Shown piece by piece: positions 5,034 to 13,814 of a stretch of 64,000 bases of DNA; the first letter of the stretch is position 1; every line of letters starts with the position of its first letter. The notes beneath the pieces are model-generated. The model did not search any database. It saw only the letters and a list, made by a program, of their open reading frames with translations, and was not told the DNA's origin. The translations under genes and the position numbers were made by a program. Location of the stretch: the NCBI GenBank assembly GCA_963712745.1, contig CAVQJC010000010.1, positions 96,001 through 160,000 on the forward strand, read 5' to 3'. This DNA comes from an uncultured Chloroflexia bacterium. Its GTDB lineage: Bacteria; Chloroflexota; Limnocylindria; Limnocylindrales; CSP1-4.

Positions 5034-7631
5034 CTAGCCCTCGCCCCCGTTCTTGGCCAGGTGGCGCTGCATGGCCGCCTTGCGGCTGAGGTTCACACGA
5101 CCCTGGCGATCGATCTCGATGACCACGACCATGATCTCGTCGCCGACCTGCACGACATCCTCGACGGTGGGCACGTGGTAGTCGGCCAGCTCGCCGATGC
5201 GCACGAGGCCCTCCTTGCCCGGCAGGATCTCGACGAACGCGCCGAAGCCCATGATGCGCGTGACCTTGCCCAGGTACAGCGCGCCGACCTCGACCTCGCG
5301 GGTGAGTGACTCGATCCACTGGATGGCCTTGGCGGAGTGCTCCGAGTTGACGGCCGCGATCTCGACGCTGCCATCGTCTTCGACGTTGATCTCCGTGCCG
5401 GTCTCTTCCTGGATCTTGCGGATCGTGGCACCACCCTTGCCGATGATGTCGCGGATCTTCTCAGGGTTGATCTTGATGGTGATGATGCGCGGCGCGAAGT
5501 CGCTGACATCGCCGCGAGCGGACGGCAGGACCTCGGTCATCTTGCCCAGGATGGTCATGCGCGCGGTGTAGGCCTTCTCCAGGCCCTGGCGGATGATGTC
5601 CTCGTTGATGCCCTGGACCTTGATGTCCATCTGCAGGGCCGTGACGCCGTCAGCGGTGCCGGTGACCTTGAAGTCCATGTCACCGAAGAAGTCCTCCTTG
5701 CCGAGGATGTCGGTGAGGACCGTGAAACGGTCGCCATCGGTGACCAGACCCATGGCCGCGCCGGCGACCGGAGCCTTGATGGGCACGCCCGCATCCATGA
5801 GCGCCAGCGTCGAGCCACAGGTCGAGGCCATGGACGTTGAGCCGTTGGACGTGACGCACTCGGAAACGAGACGGATGACGTAGGGGAACTCTTCCTGGTC
5901 GGGCAGGACCGGGACGAGGGCCCGCTCGGCTAGCGCGCCGTGACCGATCTCGCGCCGGCCAGGGCCGCGCATGAACTTGTTCTCACCGGTGCTGTACGGC
6001 GGCATGTTGTAGTGGTGCAGGTAGCGCTTCGATTCTTCGGGGCTGATGGTGTCGATGCGCTGCACATCGCTCGAGGGGCCCAGCGTGGCCACGGTGAGCG
6101 CCTGTGTCTCGCCACGCGTGAACAGGCCCGAGCCGTGGGCGCGTGGCAGCAGACCGACCTCCACCGAGATGGGCCGGATGGTGTCCACGTCGCGACCGTC
6201 GATGCGCAGGCCCTCGTCGAGGACGAGCTCCCGGACGGTCTTCTTGTGCAGCAGCGTGGTCAGGCTCTTGCTCATGCCGGAGGCCACGAGGGCCGCCTCG
6301 AACGCAGCGTCGGCGACATCGGCGTCACCACCACCCTTGCGCATGCGCACCGAGTCGGCCACGGCCGACTTGAAGGCGTTGACGCGGACCGGCAGGTCCT
6401 CGGCCATGCGCTGCAGCAGGGCAGCGGTGGCCTCGGCATCGGCCAGGGCGCGGTGAGTGGGATCGACCGAAAGCTCGAAGAACTCGACCAGGTCGGCCAG
6501 CTTGTGGGCGTCGAGATCGGGGTAGCCGGCCCGTGCGAGCACCAGCGTGTCGAGGTACTGACCGGGTTCGATGCGGGTACCGTCGGCGAGGGCAGCTTCG
6601 ATGAAGCTGATGTCGAAGCCGACGTTGTGGCCAACGAGGATGTCGTCCCCGGCGAAGTCGAGCAGCTGGGCGGCCGCCTCGGATGGACTGGGGGCGCTGG
6701 CCACGTCGGCGTCGGTCAGGCCGTGGATCTGCTTGCCCACGATGCCGCGAGTGGGCTTGACGAGCGTCTCGAAGCGGTCGGTCACATTGCCGCCGGCGAG
6801 TCGCACGGCACCGATCTCGACCAGCTCGCCGGTCCGCGCGTCCTTGCTCGTGGTCTCGGTGTCGAAGACGACGAAGGACTCGCCCGATTCGACCGCGTCG
6901 ACGAAGTCGATGACGGAATCCACGGCAGGTTCGAGATACGGGATCTGCTTGGCCTTGCCGACCATGGCCTGCAGCTCCTCCTGGAGCTCGATCACGGGCA
7001 GCAGGCTCTTGTGGCCGAACATGATGGCGTCGGCCATGACCGACTCCGGCAGGATCTTGGCGCCAGCCTCGACCATCATGATGGCGTCGCGGGTACCGCT
7101 GACGATGAGGTCCAGCTCGGACTCATCCATCTGGCTGGCCGTGGGGTTGACCACGAACTCACCACCGATGCGACCGATGCGCACCGCCGCGATGGGGCCC
7201 AGGAAGGGGATCTCGCTGATGGTCAGCGCGGCCGATGCGGCGATGGTGCCGATGGTGTCAGGGTTGTTCTCCTGGTCGGTGGAGAGGACCGTGAGAACGC
7301 ACTGCACGTCGTCCTTGTAGCCCGTGGGGAAGAGCGGACGAATGGGACGGTCGGTGAGGCGGGCGGCGAGGATGGCTGCCTCCGACGGGCGAGCCTCGCG
7401 CTTGATGAAGCCGCCGGGGATCTTGCCCGCGGCGTACATCCGCTCTTCGAAATCGATGGTGAGCGGGAAGAAGTCGAGACCGGCGCGGGGGTCGGCCCGA
7501 TTGGCCGTACCCAACAGCATGGTGTCGCCGTACTGCACGGTCACGGACCCGCCAGCAAGCCGAGCAAGCTTGCCCGTCTCGATGGTGAGCGTGCGACCGC
7601 CGAATTCGGTCGTGAGAGTGGTTACCGTCAT
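5034..7631 (-). CDS. pnp: Polyribonucleotide nucleotidyltransferase (PNPase) with an inserted DEDDh exonuclease domain
   Basis: PH1 (DFFPLTIDFEERMYAAGKIPGGFIKRE, DRPIRPLFP), PH2 (RIDGR, GRREIGHG, SNGSTSMAS, DILGKEDFFGDMDFK), KH (IIGKGG), S1 (FGAFVEIL). An extra ~165-aa DEDDh domain lies at ~6390-6880. Downstream of rpsO. Confidence 0.97.
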   Translation of the reverse strand: MTVTTLTTEFGGRTLTIETGKLARLAGGSVTVQYGDTMLLGTANRADPRAGLDFFPLTIDFEERMYAAGKIPGGFIKREARPSEAAILAARLTDRPIRPLFPTGYKDDVQCVLTVLSTDQENNPDTIGTIAASAALTISEIPFLGPIAAVRIGRIGGEFVVNPTASQMDESELDLIVSGTRDAIMMVEAGAKILPESVMADAIMFGHKSLLPVIELQEELQAMVGKAKQIPYLEPAVDSVIDFVDAVESGESFVVFDTETTSKDARTGELVEIGAVRLAGGNVTDRFETLVKPTRGIVGKQIHGLTDADVASAPSPSEAAAQLLDFAGDDILVGHNVGFDISFIEAALADGTRIEPGQYLDTLVLARAGYPDLDAHKLADLVEFFELSVDPTHRALADAEATAALLQRMAEDLPVRVNAFKSAVADSVRMRKGGGDADVADAAFEAALVASGMSKSLTTLLHKKTVRELVLDEGLRIDGRDVDTIRPISVEVGLLPRAHGSGLFTRGETQALTVATLGPSSDVQRIDTISPEESKRYLHHYNMPPYSTGENKFMRGPGRREIGHGALAERALVPVLPDQEEFPYVIRLVSECVTSNGSTSMASTCGSTLALMDAGVPIKAPVAGAAMGLVTDGDRFTVLTDILGKEDFFGDMDFKVTGTADGVTALQMDIKVQGINEDIIRQGLEKAYTARMTILGKMTEVLPSARGDVSDFAPRIITIKINPEKIRDIIGKGGATIRKIQEETGTEINVEDDGSVEIAAVNSEHSAKAIQWIESLTREVEVGALYLGKVTRIMGFGAFVEILPGKEGLVRIGELADYHVPTVEDVVQVGDEIMVVVIEIDRQGRVNLSRKAAMQRHLAKNGGEG

Positions 7632-7757: not shown

Positions 7758-8027
7758 CTAGCGGCGCAGGCCGAGCCGTTCGATGACGGACTGGTACCGG
7801 GCAGCATCCTTGCGCATGAGATACGCAAGCAGGCGGCGTCGCGTGCCAACGAGCTTGAGCAAGCCGCGGCGCGAGTGGTGATCCTTGGGGTAGCGTCGTA
7901 GATGCTCGGTCAGCCCCGCGATCCGCTCCGTGAGCAGTGCGACCTGGACTTCCGGCGATCCGGTGTCACCTTCCTTGGTGGCGTAATCGGCAACGACGCC
8001 TGCCTTCGTTTCCCGCGTCAGCGGCAA
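7758..8027 (-). CDS. rpsO: 30S ribosomal protein S15
   Basis: [31 protein letters not shown] start at 8027 with GGAGG RBS gives 89 aa. Confidence 0.97.
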
Positions 8028-8071
8028 CTGGTCCTCCAGCCTATCCATATACCTATCTGTTACCGCGCGGC

Positions 8072-8080
8072 AGCATAGCA
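8072..8080 (-). promoter_or_regulatory. Putative extended -10 promoter (TGcTATGCT) for rpsO-pnp
   Basis: TGn+TATGCT about 45 nt upstream of the rpsO start. Confidence 0.55.
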
Positions 8081-8563
8081 CAGTGTCTCAGGATAGGCGT
8101 GCACCTGGACGCGCGATAAGGCGGCGAGCCGCCGCATAGTCTGTGGTTCGCGCGGGCGCCCGTCGCTTGGTTGAAGAGCATTGTGACCTATCAGGCCCCG
8201 CTGCGCAAAGCCGGGGGTCGTTCCAGGATCTGCCAGTGCACGGCTGCTGCCTGGCTCAACTGCCTCACCATCATCAGGCACGAGCGGCGCCGGGCCAGTC
8301 AGGCGCGTCATGTCGAGATCGCGGTTCATCTTGCACTTGCCGGTCATGCCCTCGACCTTGATCGTGCCGGTCATGATCATTGCCTTGACGGCTGCCCTGG
8401 CCAACCAGTCGGCCGTCCGACCGCCTCTCGATCGATCGCTCATCGCGGCTGGGCTTGACCTTGATCCTGGACGCGCCCGCACCTGGCAGGGCTGTGTTGT
8501 CGCCCGGACGCAGAGGCTTGTGGTCGGCCCGCACGCTACCCTGTCCACGACAGGAGGACGAGA

Positions 8564-8680
8564 ATGGCGACCAGCGGCCCGGGCATGGGCGTTGTGCACG
8601 TTGTCGACGCCGACCACGCGTGCGCCGTCGGGGTCGGGCGTGAACGCGAAGCACGCATGCCGGTGCTCGGCGCGCGGTGA
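8564..8680 (+). CDS. Small upstream ORF / putative leader peptide of hutH (38 aa)
   Basis: -10-like TACCCT (8537-8542), AGGAGG (8552-8557), ATG 8564. The TGA stop overlaps the hutH GTG (GTGA). Confidence 0.5.
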   Translation: MATSGPGMGVVHVVDADHACAVGVGREREARMPVLGAR

Positions 8681-10305
8681 CCGACGACCCCCTGGCCTCT
8701 GCGCCAGTCGTGCTCAACGGCGCCGAGCTGACCGTCCCCGACGTGGAGTCGGTGGCACGCGGTGAGCGGGACGCGGTGCTGGCCGACGATGCCCGAGCGC
8801 GCGTGGCCGAGGCGCGCGCGGTCGTCGAGCGTTTGGTCGCCTCCGGTGAGGTCGTCTACGGGGTGACGACCGGTTTTGGCGCCCTGGCCTCGACGTTCGT
8901 GCCCGCAGCGCGGGCTCGCGAGCTGCAGGAGCGGTTGCTGTCGAGCCACGCTGCCGGAGTCGGTGAACCGCTGCCGACAGAGGTAGTGCGCGCGATGTTG
9001 CTGCTGCGTGCCAACACCCTGGCGCTGGGCCACTCCGGCTGTCGGCCGGAACTCATCGATCGTCTGCTGGAGCTGCTGCGTCTTGGCCTCCACCCGGTCG
9101 TGCCGGCCCAGGGCAGCGTCGGCGCATCGGGAGACCTCGCCCCCCTGGCCCATCTGGCACTGCCGGTCATCGGCCGCGGCCGGGTCGAGGTCGAGGGCCA
9201 GGAGTTGCCGGCGGCAGAGGCCCTCGCCGCAGCCGGCCTCGAACCGCTGTCGCTGGAGCCCAAGGAAGGCCTGGCTCTGCTCAACGGCACCCAGATGATG
9301 AGTGCCATCGGCGCGCTCGTACTGGCCGCTGCCGACCGGCTGGCCCGGACCGCGAGCGTGACCGCTGCCATCTCGGTGGAGGCGCTGCGCGGCACCGAGG
9401 TCGCGTACTCCGCCGCGCTCCAGCACACGCGCCCGCACCCCGGCCAGGTCCAGACGGCGGCCGAGCTGCGTTGGCTGCTGCGCGACTCGACCATCCAGTC
9501 GGCTCATCATGGCCACGACCACCGCGTCCAGGACCCCTACTCGCTGCGCTGCGTCCCGCAAGTCCACGGTGCAGCGCGCGATGCGCTCGACAACCTCCGC
9601 CGGGTGCTCGACATCGAGCTCAACTCGGCCACCGACAACCCACTCGTCTTCCCCGAAGGCGGCAACGTGCCCGAGGACGCTCTCGCCACCGGCCGCGGCC
9701 TGGTCATCAGCGGTGGCAACTTCCACGGCGAGCCCATCGCGCTCGCGCTCGACTACGCCAAACTGGCCATCGCCGAGATCGGCTCGATCAGCGAACGACG
9801 GGTGGCCCTGCTACTGGACCCTCGCCTCAACGATGGGCTGCCGGCGTTCCTGGGCACCTCGGCCGGGCTCGACTCGGGCTTGATGATCCTGCAGTACACC
9901 GCGGCTGCCCTCGCCTCCGAGTCCAAGGTGTTGGCCCATCCGGCCTCGGCCGACTCGATACCCACCTCGGCCAACCAGGAGGACCATGTCTCGATGGGCT
10001 CGATCGCCGCGCGCAATGCACAGGCAGTGCTCGAGCACAGCGAACGCATCGTGGCCATCGAACTCATCTGCGCCTCGCAAGGGCTTGACCTGCGACTCGA
10101 CTTGCAGCCGGATACGGCACCAGGCACCGGCGTGGCGCAGGCGCATGCGCGCGTGAGAGCCGTCATCGAGCGCCTCGAGCGCGACCGCGAACCCGGGCCG
10201 GACCTTGAGGCCGCGTTCCGCCTCGTCCACGACGGTGCGCTCGTCGACCTGGCCACCCCGCCAGCGACCGTGGGCACGTCGTGGCTGGGACCCGACCCTC
10301 GATGA
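8677..10305 (+). CDS. hutH: Histidine ammonia-lyase
   Basis: VYGVTTGFG, SSHAAG (His specificity position), GSVGASGDLAPL (ASG MIO), KEGLALLNGTQ, VQDPYSLRC, GGNFHG, SANQEDHVSMG. Confidence 0.93.
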   Translation: MTDDPLASAPVVLNGAELTVPDVESVARGERDAVLADDARARVAEARAVVERLVASGEVVYGVTTGFGALASTFVPAARARELQERLLSSHAAGVGEPLPTEVVRAMLLLRANTLALGHSGCRPELIDRLLELLRLGLHPVVPAQGSVGASGDLAPLAHLALPVIGRGRVEVEGQELPAAEALAAAGLEPLSLEPKEGLALLNGTQMMSAIGALVLAAADRLARTASVTAAISVEALRGTEVAYSAALQHTRPHPGQVQTAAELRWLLRDSTIQSAHHGHDHRVQDPYSLRCVPQVHGAARDALDNLRRVLDIELNSATDNPLVFPEGGNVPEDALATGRGLVISGGNFHGEPIALALDYAKLAIAEIGSISERRVALLLDPRLNDGLPAFLGTSAGLDSGLMILQYTAAALASESKVLAHPASADSIPTSANQEDHVSMGSIAARNAQAVLEHSERIVAIELICASQGLDLRLDLQPDTAPGTGVAQAHARVRAVIERLERDREPGPDLEAAFRLVHDGALVDLATPPATVGTSWLGPDPR

Positions 10306-11306: not shown

Positions 11307-12272
11307 CTAGCCCGCGGCCTCCGGCGAGATGAAGACCTTGTCAGGGTAGAGCCGCCCAGCCTCCACGTGCGCCATGGCCACGAGCACCCCGCGCTCGTCG
11401 AGCACGCGCACGATATCGGCCGCCCCGAGCACGCTCGAAGGGTCCAGGGGGCCGGAGACCGTGCCCCGGACGCGGATGATCTGCCCCCGGGCGATGGCCT
11501 CGCGGTCGCGTTCCGGCACCTGCACCATGGGGATGTGGTCGAGCCCGGCGTCGGGCGAGAGCAACAGCGCTTCGATGTTGCCCGCTGCCAGCTCCTGCTT
11601 GAGCCGGTCGAGCGAATGCGCGGCATCGAGGGTGAAGGGACCGCTGGCGGTCCGCGTGAGGGCGCCCAGGTAGCCACCGCAGCCGAGTTCCCGACCCAGG
11701 TCGCGAGCGAGCGAGCGTACGTACGTGCCGGCACTGCAGCGAACCTCGAGCTCGGCCATCGGCCGATAAGGGTCGGCCGTGTCCCAGTCGGTGAGCGTGA
11801 GCTCGTGGATGGTCACGCTGCGCGCTGTCAGCTCCGGCTTCTCCCCGCCCCGCGCCAGCTCGTAGGCTCGCTTGCCTCCCACGTGGACAGCTGAGTGATC
11901 GGGCGGTATCTGTTCGATCTGGCCTCTGAACCCGGCCAGGGCGGCCTCGACGGCCCCGCGACTCGGAGGCGGCCCGTCCGTCGCTGTCATCTCGCCGTCG
12001 ATATCGTCGGTCGTCGAGCTGGCGCCGAAGACGACCGAGGCGCGGTAGCCCTTGGTGTCCCCGCGGTGGTAGTCGACCATGCGCGTGGCGCGGCCGAGGA
12101 ACACCGGCAGCACGCCCATCGCGAACGGATCGAGCGTGCCGCCGTGACCGACGCGCCGAACCCCCGTCAGGCGACGCACCGTATCGATGACGTCGTGGGA
12201 GGTCGGGCCCGCGGGCTTGGAGACGACGATGATGCCGTCGATGCGGGGTCCGTCGTCGCGCCGCCGCCCCAT
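11307..12272 (-). CDS. truB: tRNA pseudouridine(55) synthase
   Basis: KPAGPTSHD, VGHGGTLDPFAMGVL, CSAGTYVRSLARDLG. Confidence 0.96.
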   Translation of the reverse strand: MGRRRDDGPRIDGIIVVSKPAGPTSHDVIDTVRRLTGVRRVGHGGTLDPFAMGVLPVFLGRATRMVDYHRGDTKGYRASVVFGASSTTDDIDGEMTATDGPPPSRGAVEAALAGFRGQIEQIPPDHSAVHVGGKRAYELARGGEKPELTARSVTIHELTLTDWDTADPYRPMAELEVRCSAGTYVRSLARDLGRELGCGGYLGALTRTASGPFTLDAAHSLDRLKQELAAGNIEALLLSPDAGLDHIPMVQVPERDREAIARGQIIRVRGTVSGPLDPSSVLGAADIVRVLDERGVLVAMAHVEAGRLYPDKVFISPEAAG

Positions 12273-13294
12273 CAGCGAGCCGAGAGCTCGTCGAGCAGCT
12301 GCTGTGCCAGGCCCAGGACTGCGGGCACGGCCTCGTCGATGGGGCCGTCGAAGGTGGCCCCCGCGGCACGCGCGTGTCCGCCGCCGCCGTAGACCCCGGC
12401 CAGCCTGGTGGCATCCACGCCTTCGTCACGCGTTCGGACCGAGAGGCGGACCGAGCCGGCGACATCTTTGAACAGGATCGTGACCTCGGCTGTAGCCGAC
12501 TGGGCAAGCAGGTCGATGAGCCCCTCTGACATCTCCTGGGTCGCGCCCGTGACCTGGTAGTCATCCTCGCTCGCCACCGACCAGGTCAGGCGGCCATCGG
12601 CGGAGGTCTCGAGGCGCGCGAGCACCCGCCCGAACAGCCTCAGCTGGGCGTTGGGCTTGGTGCGATAGATGCGCCGCGCGATCATCGGCAGATCGGCACC
12701 GGCGGCCACCAGCTCGGAGGCCACGCGCAGCGTGCGCGGCGTGGTATTGGAGTGGGCGAAGTTGGCAGTGTCGAAGACCAGCCCGGCGGTCAGGTCCTGG
12801 GCGATGTCGCCGCCAGCCGCGTCGTAGCCGAGCCCGAGATGAGGCATCAGCAGCGAGACCTGCTCGCAGGTAGCCGCTGCCTCGGCATCGACCCAGTCGG
12901 TGGTCCCGAACCCCGGGTTCGAGACGTGATGATCGATGTTGACGATGGGCACTCGCGCGAACAGCCCCGCATCCTGGGTCGCGACCGCTCCCACCCGGGC
13001 AAGGTCACCGCAGTCGCAGACGACGATGAGGTCGGGGTCGAGATCAGGCTCGGGCGCCGTGCGGAAGCGCTCGACCTGGGGCATGAAGTCGTACATCTCT
13101 GGGACCGGGTCCGCGCACACGAAGTTCGTGCGCGCGCCGAGCGACTCGAGGGCAAGGCCGATCGCCAGCGCCGAGCCGAGCGCGTCGGCATCGGGGTTCT
13201 CGTGGCACGTGAGCATCACGCGCTTGGCAGCGAGCAATCGCTCCGGCACCTCTGCGGGCACAGCCTCGAGGTCCGACGCAAGCAGGGAGCGCAT
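12272..13294 (-). CDS. nrnA: DHH/DHHA1 phosphoesterase (NrnA-like oligoribonuclease/pAp phosphatase)
   Basis: HENPDADALGS, NIDHH, DTANF, GGGHARAAG; lies between rbfA and truB. Start uncertain (ATG 13294 or GTG 13309). Confidence 0.88.
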   Translation of the reverse strand: MRSLLASDLEAVPAEVPERLLAAKRVMLTCHENPDADALGSALAIGLALESLGARTNFVCADPVPEMYDFMPQVERFRTAPEPDLDPDLIVVCDCGDLARVGAVATQDAGLFARVPIVNIDHHVSNPGFGTTDWVDAEAAATCEQVSLLMPHLGLGYDAAGGDIAQDLTAGLVFDTANFAHSNTTPRTLRVASELVAAGADLPMIARRIYRTKPNAQLRLFGRVLARLETSADGRLTWSVASEDDYQVTGATQEMSEGLIDLLAQSATAEVTILFKDVAGSVRLSVRTRDEGVDATRLAGVYGGGGHARAAGATFDGPIDEAVPAVLGLAQQLLDELSAR

Positions 13295-13298
13295 GCCT

Positions 13299-13814
13299 TC
13301 AGCGACCACGTCGTTTCCTGGCTTTGCGCAAAGACACCCGGTCAACGCGACGGCGGTAGCCCGGAGGCAGAGGTTCCGCTACGACATCGGGATCGGCCGG
13401 GTCGTTGAGCGATGTCGGCGTGGGCAGCGCGGGCACCTCGGGGGCCGGCTCATCCACGTGACCGCCGCTGCCCTCGAACTCCGCTTCGACCTGCTCGAGT
13501 AGCTGCATCACGCGGGTACCCCGCTGGGCGCTGTCATCCTCGCGCAGGTGCAACTCGGGAATGCGCCTGAGGTGCAGCTTGCCCAGGTTGTGGCGCACGA
13601 AGGGCATGGCCCGGCCGAGCGCTGCCATGGTGGCTTTGCGCTGATCGTCATCCCCGATGACCGAGGCGAACACGGTGGCATGTCGCAGGTCGGGCGTGGT
13701 CTCGACGCTGGTGATGGTCACGAAGCCCACCCGCGGATCATGCACCTCGCGCTGGACGATGGCGCTGATCTCTTCCTGCAGGAGGTGGTCGACGCGCCTG
13801 GTGCGCTCGCTCAC
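13299..13814 (-). CDS. rbfA: Ribosome-binding factor A with C-terminal extension
   Basis: RTRRVDHLLQEEIS, DPRVGFVTIT, TPDLRHATV, LRRIPELH. Confidence 0.95.
   Translation of the reverse strand: MSERTRRVDHLLQEEISAIVQREVHDPRVGFVTITSVETTPDLRHATVFASVIGDDDQRKATMAALGRAMPFVRHNLGKLHLRRIPELHLREDDSAQRGTRVMQLLEQVEAEFEGSGGHVDEPAPEVPALPTPTSLNDPADPDVVAEPLPPGYRRRVDRVSLRKARKRRGR

Follow-up and report, generated by a model that had tools for sequence, protein, structure and literature searches.

PNPase is among the most studied enzymes of RNA decay, and from bacteria to human mitochondria its arrangement of domains is, to our knowledge, taken to be constant. The canonical bacterial enzymes (E. coli, C. crescentus and S. 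antibioticus) are encoded at an rpsO-pnp locus and combine two RNase PH-like domains (PH1 and PH2), the phosphorolytic site, a complete all-alpha (helical) domain, and KH and S1 domains. In eukaryotes, the exosome with Rrp6 joins an RNase-PH-type ring to a hydrolytic 3'-5' exonuclease of the DEDD superfamily. For Caulobacter, a degradosome is described in which PNPase occurs together with RNase D (PMC4245959). In solved PNPases the helical domain is reported to lie on the ring face opposite KH/S1, forming the lining of a pore that leads to the phosphorolytic site and is thought to pass small molecules, and differences in helix packing among these domains have been noted (PMC2723993). Our literature searches found no second nuclease domain in any solved or published PNPase.

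A second group of enzymes relevant here is ExoDinG, known from S. aureus, B. subtilis and L. monocytogenes, in which an N-terminal exonuclease is followed by an SF2 helicase. ExoDinG enzymes are described as trimming single-stranded 3' ends of both RNA and DNA, including those of unprocessed rRNA and R-loop RNA (PMC12525004, PMC12774634). As presented in PMC12525004, the B. subtilis enzyme degrades ssDNA in the 3'-5' direction as well as the RNA of RNA-DNA hybrids, prefers ssDNA over ssRNA, and cleaves ssRNA solely with Mn2+. The Listeria enzyme is presented as an exoribonuclease that acts on unprocessed rRNA both in vitro and in vivo (PMC12774634).

A PNPase with an exonuclease domain inside its helical domain

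The window, by which we mean the whole 64,000-nucleotide stretch of Chloroflexota DNA that was analysed, contains the following features at and near the pnp locus:

5034..7631, minus strand: pnp, a continuous ORF of 865 aa plus stop; the genome's sole PNPase
6948..7631, minus strand: PH1, the first RNase PH-like domain (aa 1-228; TIGR03591 positions 1-232)
6876..6947, minus strand: linker and one helix preceding the DEDDh insert (aa 229-252)
6414..6875, minus strand: inserted DEDDh domain (RNase_T/DnaQ-like, PolC/ExoDinG type), a predicted 3'-5' exonuclease (aa 253-406)
6855..6863, minus strand: ExoI motif, D257-x-E259, invariant in 126/126 sequences
6612..6614, minus strand: ExoII aspartate D340; H335, F339 and D340 are invariant
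6438..6455, minus strand: ExoIII motif, H393-x4-D398; H393, R394 and D398 are invariant
6207..6413, minus strand: residual helical domain (aa 407-475), with a PF03726 match to the last 25 positions only
5517..6206, minus strand: PH2, with the phosphorolytic site (aa 476-705); invariant stretches, N596-S603 and D647...D651-M652-D653-F654-K655
5310..5483, minus strand: KH domain (KH_1; aa 717-774, E 4.2e-12)
5079..5294, minus strand: S1 domain (aa 780-851, E 3.1e-17)
7758..8081, minus strand: rpsO (ribosomal protein S15), directly upstream of pnp; the S15 model matches aa 23-107 of the frame
12272..13345, minus strand: DHH-family protein whose NrnA-like match is weak (73 bits; cut-off 350)

A first-pass annotation of the window had proposed that this continuous frame at the native rpsO-pnp locus encodes the main PNPase, with PH2, KH and S1 kept and a DEDDh exonuclease domain built in, and each of these points was borne out. 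By score (947.8 bits for TIGR03591 against an equivalog cut-off of 525.05), by its two matches each to RNase_PH and RNase_PH_C, and by its PH2 site, KH and S1 domains, which are intact in both the Pfam scan and residue conservation, the protein is a PNPase whose variant feature is the all-alpha domain. The PH2 residues N596-S603, D647, D651, D653 and K655 are presumably equivalent to the catalytic and phosphate-binding residues of the E. coli enzyme. The motif positions given earlier for DEDDh and PH2 proved exact: VFDTETT starts at aa 255, IHGLTD at 302, GHNVGFD at 334, LDTLVLAR at 360, HRALADA at 393, SNGSTSMAS at 595 and GDMDFK at 650. Scanning the window with Rfam gave no match at gathering thresholds, and therefore no known leader RNA lies upstream of pnp.

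The profile matches also locate the insert. RNase_T (PF00929) matches aa 254-406 over its full length (profile positions 1-164 of 164, E 5.5e-29; 102.2 bits, cut-off 24), and the same full-length match was recovered in a whole-genome scan. TIGR03591, on the other hand, matches in two stretches (profile positions 1-232 and 289-688) and leaves positions 233-288 unmatched, while the all-alpha domain is incomplete, PF03726 aligning by positions 57-81 of 81 only (aa 457-481) and, with 21.5 bits, missing its cut-off of 24.6. The expected domain order of RNase_PH, RNase_T, partial all-alpha, RNase_PH, KH and S1 was thus found, with the all-alpha match below cut-off, and the Pfam scan found no helicase domain in the protein. 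The DEDDh insert sits between the first helix and the remainder of the all-alpha domain, such that a domain of ~154 aa, with a short linker and helix, stands in for ~56 helical-domain profile positions, and the C-terminal helices are kept. In the structural model the last DEDDh helix (395-430) continues into two more helical-domain helices (437-451 and 455-473). Fused PNPases measure 858-879 aa versus 736-739 aa for the canonical PNPases of sister families, so that the extra ~165 aa first reported should be revised to a net gain of ~125-140 aa. The idea that this architecture was undescribed holds for the literature, where our searches found no description, but not for public protein collections, in which it is already machine-annotated.

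The fusion is genuine and, among sampled genomes, confined to one lineage

The source genome is a MAG (84.6% complete) with 5% contamination, which lends some weight to reading the ORF as an assembly or binning chimera in which a DnaQ-like gene was joined into pnp. However, base composition is continuous across both insert junctions, and both are bridged, with 0-1 differences each, by contigs from four other public runs (X1, 6855-7166; X17, 6832-7048; X3, 6167-6384; X2, 6075-6264 and 6245-6387). Moreover, the fused architecture recurs in more than 100 independent assemblies, some of whose contigs reach 1-2 Mb. On the strength of this recurrence and of the bridging contigs we reject a chimera, to which we assign a negligible probability. 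One X2 contig displays a joint that skips 6029-7061 with just 24 letters on its shorter side; joints of this kind often come from other organisms, and we give it no weight. X17 is an RNA-library run, but since it is represented by contigs and may include DNA, depth in it is no sign of transcription.

The same architecture is shared by three families (f1, f2 and f4) of one Chloroflexota class (Ca. Limnocylindria/Limnocylindrales), which also includes the sister families f3 and f5. Within our class sample the fusion was present in 44/44 f1, 6/6 f2 and 49/50 f4 genomes, and 40 of 41 relatives gave a full-length match across the junctions. Even the f2 genomes of 1.0-1.4 Mb retain it (16/16), whereas a contiguous canonical PNPase was seen in all five f3 and f5 genomes checked. 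Across the phylum, 44 of 401 sampled genomes carried the fusion, all of them f1, f2, f4 or the source genome, and it occurred in 0 of the 357 other Chloroflexota genomes sampled. In a search of 5.8 billion proteins the best 120 matches (60-89% identity) all combined PF00929 with PNPase domains, and in the ESM Atlas, where PNPase plus RNase_T clusters exist, Chloroflexota is the commonest phylum. Within these three families of the class the fusion has been passed on by vertical descent. Four loci on contigs of 2-47 kb, titled Verrucomicrobiia, Patescibacteria group, Ca. Polarisedimenticolia and Anaerolineaceae, also carry a fused PNPase. These proteins are 75-92% identical to those of f1, and we read the loci as mis-binned or loosely named rather than as occurrences outside the lineage.

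Fold, conservation and selection

The insert is predicted to adopt a DnaQ-type, RNase H-like alpha/beta fold. An AF2 model of the whole protein as a monomer reached a pLDDT of 85-96 across the DEDDh domain, and a separate model of the domain reached 91.4. In Foldseek, the whole model matched PNPase chains at an E value of about 1e-61, and the domain model matched the PolC exonuclease, S. aureus DinG, epsilon (DnaQ), ExoX and RNase T with a probability of 1.00; its top fold match was the PolC exonuclease domain 9qrn, with S. aureus DinG (9ii8/8zef) also matched. By sequence the closest PDB entries were the PolC exonuclease 2p1j (6.8e-24) and DinG 8zef (1.8e-13). PolC shares the DEDDh subtype and likewise carries it as a domain within a domain (inside its PHP domain), but differs in host protein and in biology, its exonuclease serving DNA proofreading.

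Catalytic competence of the insert is suggested by its conservation. Across 126 proteins there is no change at D257, E259, D340, H393 or D398, nor in the PH2 site, and T260, T261, H335, F339 and R394 are likewise invariant, even though the inserted domain otherwise shows just 38-55% identity between families. In 6 pairs among 4 full-length close relatives the dN/dS of the DEDDh domain is 0.13, similar to PH1 (0.11), with 0.07 for PH2, and the insert is under purifying selection; for KH+S1 the median of 0.43 (range 0.06-0.78) seems to stem from one locus with a faulty alignment or frame and was left unused. Both the invariance and the low dN/dS run against a catalytically silent insert that merely substitutes, structurally or by binding RNA, for what the helical domain has lost. 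Nothing specific speaks for such a role beyond the fact that PNPases vary most in their helical domain (f1 and f4 share 32% identity there; the least conserved stretch, at 28%, is the linker of aa 229-252), and we give it very little credence. The conserved catalytic residues nevertheless indicate capacity, and neither activity nor substrate.

The first-pass annotation had also suggested that the domain finishes the oligonucleotide products of PNPase, in effect a built-in nanoRNase doing the job of Orn by hydrolysing the 2-5-nt limit products. Its position adjoining the helical domain, described as lining the pore to the phosphorolytic site (PMC2723993), would suit that job, and the source genome yielded neither an Orn-type protein, its single PF00929 match being the insert itself, nor a match to PF01612 (RNase D/NrnC-type). 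However, the DHH-family gene, the genome's sole DHH match, lies 5 kb from pnp in a conserved nusA-infB-DHH-truB-ribF cluster, and its product, weak as the NrnA-like match is, is a candidate nanoRNase. In addition, the best family and structure matches of the insert are to PolC, ExoDinG and epsilon rather than to Orn/REXO2: the Orn model is absent among the best 25 of 68 NCBIfam family matches of the protein, and Orn/REXO2 chains are absent among its 11 PDB sequence matches and among Foldseek matches to rank 50. Sister families, too, cope without the fusion. The proposal is weakened because a DHH/NrnA-like gene shares the cluster and the insert is of PolC/ExoDinG and not Orn type, and we consider it rather improbable.

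Alternation with ExoDinG and origin of the insert

The most informative fact about the insert is that it alternates with ExoDinG across the class. In f3 and f5 the DEDDh domain is carried on a protein with DEAD and Helicase_C_2 domains (3/3 checked), and full-length ExoDinG was found in 48/49 f3 genomes and in the one f5 genome. When ExoDinG was used as query against the fusion families, the exonuclease part alone matched, inside pnp and at 38-52% identity (f1 44/44, f2 6/6, f4 49/50), although all these counts rest on related, non-independent genomes, many of them incomplete MAGs. Helicase_C_2 gave 0 matches in genomes G077, G025, G126 and G049 and in the source genome, versus one match in an f3 control. 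ExoDinG (DEDDh plus SF2 helicase) is thus present in the sister families and in most of the phylum (183/301 genomes), yet absent from the fusion clade (f1 0/15, f2 0/2, f4 0/15), and within the class the two proteins are mutually exclusive. In the source genome the PNPase insert is the sole DEDDh domain, but this does not hold throughout the clade, where a second, distant PF00929 match occurs in some genomes (5/6 in f2, several in f1). Loss of RNase R/II was considered as the specific trigger of fusion and rejected: RNB matches number 0 in the source genome and 0/151 in class genomes, families with canonical PNPase included.

In trees run against DinG, PolC and other DEDDh domains the inserts form one clade (SH-aLRT 99 in a 151-row tree, 100/99 in a 58-row tree) with the topology f4 | (f2, f1), which points to a single origin. 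The 58-row tree, comprising 12 of 25 PNPase rows, all 16 DinG, 6 PolC, 2 RecJ and every fourth 'short' and 'other' row, nests this clade within ExoDinG-only sets of 22 rows (67/89) and 26 rows (59/81). These UFBoot values (59-67) lend the ExoDinG grouping moderate support, the 151-row tree leaves the sister group of the insert unsettled, and the class's own ExoDinG clade is not its specific sister. Although the best tree favours ExoDinG over PolC, an AU test leaves a tree that joins the insert to the PolC exonuclease unrejected (delta lnL 29.15, p 0.086). The best tree thus places the insert, with moderate support, among ExoDinG exonuclease domains; the phylogeny is no proof of that origin. 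The fused PNPase, moreover, is no member of the ExoDinG family, because it is without an SF2 helicase and its exonuclease domain, although of the same type, is internal; at most it would hold a relocated domain.

A proposed dual exonuclease

We favour the view that the protein is probably the cell's single, functional PNPase with a catalytically competent DEDDh 3'-5' exonuclease of the PolC/ExoDinG lineage inserted into it, a dual phosphorolytic and hydrolytic enzyme that took over the nuclease role of ExoDinG. The insert had earlier been placed near the helical domain on the face opposite KH/S1, which agrees with its position within the helical domain and with where solved PNPases are reported to carry that domain (PMC2723993). 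On this face the trimer would bear three exonuclease sites, hydrolytic and dependent on metal, beside the side pore lined by the helical domain. A 3' end would then be attacked both by phosphorolysis inside the channel, which requires Pi, and by hydrolysis on the outer face, which does not. The insert may have assumed the ExoDinG nuclease job upon loss of the helicase. Given the published trimming of RNA and DNA 3' ends by ExoDinG and a class without RNase R/II, its main substrate would be RNA, namely 3' ends poorly threaded by PNPase, rRNA precursors or short tails, and it may also work on DNA or R-loops.

PNPase has a DNA-repair role in some bacteria, and the insert might instead perform DinG-like genome maintenance on a PNPase scaffold, trimming ssDNA 3' ends or removing R-loop RNA at stalled forks. 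The PolC/ExoDinG type of the domain, its alternation with ExoDinG across the class and the described preference of the B. subtilis enzyme for ssDNA over ssRNA (PMC12525004) are all consistent with such work. Yet the domain is joined to an enzyme that threads RNA, has KH and S1 domains and is encoded at the rpsO-pnp locus, the DNA-engaging helicase has been lost, and the Listeria enzyme is described as acting on unprocessed rRNA (PMC12774634); we regard a maintenance role as unlikely.

Building on the dual-enzyme reading, we offer only tentatively a broader proposal: a Chloroflexota lineage may have transferred the ExoDinG exonuclease to PNPase, placing it inside the helical domain, and afterwards dropped the helicase, creating a covalent bacterial counterpart of the exosome-Rrp6 in which one ring would perform both phosphorolysis and phosphate-independent hydrolysis. 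The likeness to the exosome-Rrp6 and to the Caulobacter degradosome is one of working principle only, since in those systems the nuclease is of DEDDy type and joined non-covalently as a separate polypeptide, whereas in the fused PNPase it is of DEDDh type and covalently inserted, and would be present three times per ring.

Implications

What is new here is the confinement of the fusion to one clade among the sampled Chloroflexota, its alternation with ExoDinG, and the grouping of the insert with ExoDinG domains. The alternation links enzymes from separate fields, PNPase from RNA decay and ExoDinG from replication stress, to which rRNA quality control has lately been added, and it suggests that the ExoDinG nuclease, once attached to a ring that threads RNA, can dispense with its helicase. 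Since direct expression and assay of the protein are possible, the question is testable. The hosts are abundant uncultured bacteria of soil, sediment and freshwater. If a clade-wide variant of PNPase does possess a second, hydrolytic site, the helical domain would be able to host a whole catalytic module, and bacteria would have come to combine a PH ring with a DEDD nuclease, as eukaryotes do in the exosome. Should the tentative proposal of a relocated ExoDinG nuclease also be true, the enzyme would be the cell's main machine for 3'-5' RNA decay and rRNA quality control in a class without RNase R/II, and the lineage would constitute a natural experiment on the purpose of the ExoDinG nuclease.

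A DEDDh exonuclease domain lies inside the helical domain of PNPase

The pnp reading frame (window 5034-7631, minus strand) runs for 865 codons without interruption, base composition is uniform along the whole gene, and each motif and residue number that the first-pass annotation had assigned to the encoded PNPase proved exact on checking. Pfam recognized two RNase_PH and two RNase_PH_C domains, which make up the first and second RNase PH-like halves (PH1 and PH2), together with:

aa 254-406, RNase_T (PF00929, the DEDDh exonuclease family), set between PH1 and PH2 and matching the whole profile (positions 1-164 of 164), E 5.5e-29
aa 717-774, KH
aa 780-851, S1

The proposal that the extra segment is a DEDDh domain is thereby borne out by a full-length profile match set within PNPase domains. 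From the all-alpha PNPase model (PF03726) only the last 25 profile positions were matched (aa 457-481, score under cut-off), and the NCBIfam equivalog TIGR03591 scored 947.8 bits against a cut-off of 525, split into profile positions 1-232 and 289-688. Aligned with PNPases of sister families, the insert begins right after a conserved G-K-x-K (about aa 228) and stops at about aa 456. Its top NCBIfam matches were 'DEDD exonuclease domain-containing protein' (PRK07883 models), PolC and DinG, and its closest PDB sequences were the PolC exonuclease 2p1j (6.8e-24), PolC 9qpc and DinG 8zef (1.8e-13). The closest solved folds were PolC exonuclease domains, S. aureus DinG, CRISPR-linked DnaQ, Pol III epsilon, ExoX and RNase T.

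An AlphaFold2 model of the whole PNPase had a mean pLDDT of 78 and a pTM of 0.75, with values of 85-96 in the DEDDh region and weak stretches in loops 48-83 and 521-558 and in the S1 domain; modelled by itself, the DEDDh domain reached a pLDDT of 91.4. The modelled order is PH1, a short linker, a helix (239-248), the DEDDh alpha/beta fold, helices and PH2. The final DEDDh helix, bearing H393 and D398, extends as a long helix (395-430), followed by helices 437-451 and 455-473 and then PH2. The helical domain of E. coli PNPase lies on the torus face opposite S1/KH and forms part of a pore to the active site, distinct from the central channel and thought to admit phosphate and nucleoside diphosphates (PMC2723993). 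By analogy, we infer that three DEDDh domains would sit on the ring face opposite S1/KH.

The fusion is genuine and its catalytic residues are invariant

When residues 200-500 were searched against 5.8 billion proteins, 1122 of the 8000 candidates scored matched at E <= 0.001, and all 120 of the matches listed carried PF00929 together with PNPase domains. The listed proteins are mostly 860-870 aa long and 60-89% identical to the query; NCBI names them 'polyribonucleotide nucleotidyltransferase' (Chloroflexota, Ca. Limnocylindrales) and JGI 'DNA polymerase III epsilon subunit family exonuclease'. Both junctions are bridged, with 0-1 differences, by contigs of four other public sequencing runs:

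6855-7166, run X1
6832-7048, run X17 (RNA library)
6167-6384, run X3
6075-6264 and 6245-6387, run X2

These are contigs, not raw reads, and establish that the joined form exists; they say nothing on transcription, the RNA library included. Together with the many database proteins of the same architecture they exclude an assembly chimera, and the continuity expected at the junctions is confirmed at contig level. Full-text searches of the openly available literature found no description of a PNPase with a DEDD/DnaQ-type domain. The earlier claim that the architecture is undescribed therefore stands for the papers searched, with the reservation that the proteins are already in public databases under automatic names. 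Both component families are well known, and the class that combines them is widespread though uncultured.

The fused proteins belong to three families (f1, f2 and f4, hereafter the fusion clade) of one Chloroflexota class, with f3 and f5 as sister families. In an alignment of 126 of them D257, E259, T260, T261, H335, F339, D340, H393, R394 and D398 are invariant, all five DEDDh residues among them, as is the PH2 site (N596-S603, D647, D651-K655). That the insert is catalytically silent is very unlikely given this invariance of its catalytic residues. Mean identity between f1 and f4 was 77% in PH2, 68% in PH1, 47% in the DEDDh domain, 32% in the remaining helices and 28% in the linker, and dN/dS among four close relatives was 0.07 in PH2, 0.11 in PH1, 0.13 in the DEDDh domain and 0.23 in the helices. 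The inserts form a single clade (SH-aLRT 99 in a 151-row tree; 100/99 in a more careful 58-row tree) in which f4 stands apart from f2 plus f1, a topology consistent with a single insertion that was then passed on vertically.

Gene neighbourhood and exonuclease complement

On the minus strand the genes run nusA, infB, a DHH-family NrnA-like gene, truB, ribF, rpsO and pnp. That rpsO adjoins pnp on the same strand upholds the placement of the gene at the rpsO-pnp locus. Two neighbours call for comment:

8677-10305, plus strand, hutH (histidine ammonia-lyase, 675 bits), between ribF and rpsO, breaking the otherwise conserved nusA-infB-truB-ribF-rpsO-pnp order
12272-13345, minus strand, DHH-family protein between infB and truB, with a weak NrnA match (73 bits against a cut-off of 350)

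The DHH-family protein also touches the model of the A-adding tRNA nucleotidyltransferase; as an NrnA-like candidate it bears on whether the insert itself acts as a nanoRNase. We consider a nanoRNase role a weaker explanation, since pnp shares its cluster with a DHH/NrnA-like gene and the insert is not Orn-like.

The 4.2-Mb genome, in 20 contigs and 84.6% complete, contains a single PF00929 domain, the one within PNPase, and one DHH protein. At that completeness it yielded no second PNPase, in keeping with the suggestion that this is the main PNPase of the cell, and no RNB, PF01612 (RNase D/NrnC type) or Helicase_C_2 domain. RNB (RNase R/II) was found in 0 of 151 genomes of the class, so the absence of these enzymes is a class trait and was rejected as a loss specific to the fusion. 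Among the 3'-5' exoribonuclease families searched for, PNPase and RNase PH alone were found, a set that looks unusually small.

Distribution of the fusion

Whole-genome searches used the junction piece (aa 200-480) as query. Among relatives, 40 of 41 genomes matched (genus g1, 23/24; f2, 16/16), and the f2 genomes retain the fusion throughout although they measure just 1.0-1.4 Mb. In a class sample of 151, whose tallies here and below include unpublished genomes, the full-length junction was present in f1 (44/44), f2 (6/6) and f4 (49/50; one f4 match ends at residue 186). Matches in f3 (47/49) and f5 (1/1) were confined to the DEDDh part and lay in another frame, about 890 aa long; five f3/f5 genomes carry a canonical contiguous PNPase of 736-739 aa. 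At E <= 1e-30 the fusion occurred in 44 of 401 genomes sampled across the phylum, confined to f1 (23/23), f2 (4/4), f4 (16/16) and the window's own genome, and was absent from the remaining 357. The search proposed for related genomes thus found the architecture throughout the sampled f1, f2 and f4 genomes, bar rare exceptions.

A species-representative collection contained 23 loci with the entire insert, titled Chloroflexia, Chloroflexota, Ca. Limnocylindrales or Ca. Limnocylindria. Four contigs under other titles (L057, Verrucomicrobiia; L058, Patescibacteria group; L065, Ca. Polarisedimenticolia; L053, Anaerolineaceae) were rejected as independent occurrences, their PNPases being 75-92% identical to f1 proteins; they are probably mis-binned contigs in public MAGs, or loosely named.

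The fused PNPase alternates with ExoDinG

Most genomes of the class have one PF00929 domain. In all three f3/f5 cases examined it is N-terminal on a DEAD plus Helicase_C_2 protein, an architecture named ExoDinG in a 2025 review (PMC11981726), which mentions neither PNPase nor Chloroflexi. When one such f3/f5 protein was used to search the class, full-length ExoDinG was found in f3 (48/49) and f5 (1/1). Within f1 (44/44), f2 (6/6) and f4 (49/50) the query matched over residues ~5-170 only, at 38-52% identity, inside pnp. Helicase_C_2 was found in an f3 control and in 0 of 4 well-assembled fusion-clade genomes. Across the phylum, in a tally that also includes unpublished genomes, ExoDinG-like proteins occurred in 183 of 301 genomes and in none of the f1 (0/15), f2 (0/2) or f4 (0/15) genomes. 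A single DEDDh domain is not universal in the fusion clade, since a second, distant PF00929 match (27-36% identity to the insert, frames of ~260-320 aa) appears in f2 genomes G025 and G027-G030 and in some f1 genomes.

In the 58-row tree the insert clade is nested in ExoDinG-only exonuclease sets of 22 rows (support 67/89) and 26 rows (support 59/81). The tree does not single out the ExoDinG clade of this class as sister to the inserts. Joining the insert with PolC costs 29 log-likelihood units and is not rejected (p-AU 0.086). The simplest history, which the distribution supports well and the tree moderately, would be that an ancestor had ExoDinG and a plain PNPase, and that the common forebear of f1, f2 and f4 acquired the exonuclease domain within pnp and lost the helicase gene.

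Several further proteins came to light. In the f3 ExoDinG of genome G084 (L045:3898-3984, minus strand) the DEDDh match starts about 22 codons before the first ATG/GTG/TTG of the frame, which may reflect an unusual start codon or an untranslated first strand. Two or three DEDDh domains stand in tandem in six of the insert's nearest relatives (P0131, P0133, P0138, P0142, P0152 and P0209), which are 480-1630 aa long. Two RecJ-like proteins (P0232 and P0249) read DHH - RNase_T - DHHA1 - RecJ_OB, and the DEDDh domain inserted between DHH and DHHA1 makes them a third case, after PolC and the present PNPase, of this subtype inserted within another nuclease or polymerase domain.

Predicted role of the inserted domain

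Published ExoDinG enzymes are described as single-strand 3'-5' exonucleases (PMC12525004, PMC12774634). That of B. subtilis digests ssDNA as well as the RNA strand of hybrids, and ssRNA with Mn2+ only (PMC12525004); that of Listeria breaks down unprocessed rRNA both in vitro and in vivo, and its authors regard RNase R and PNPase as likely to finish that degradation (PMC12774634). The main rival to an RNA role is that the insert serves in DNA or R-loop metabolism. We favour the predicted RNA role because the class is without RNase R/II and has only PNPase and RNase PH among the 3'-5' exoribonuclease families searched. With its DEDDh sites the PNPase ring would then be able to hydrolyse, independently of phosphate, 3' ends with which the channel copes badly, and these sites may also take on the task of ExoDinG in rRNA surveillance. 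It is this alternation with ExoDinG that we consider the most interesting aspect of the fused PNPase.
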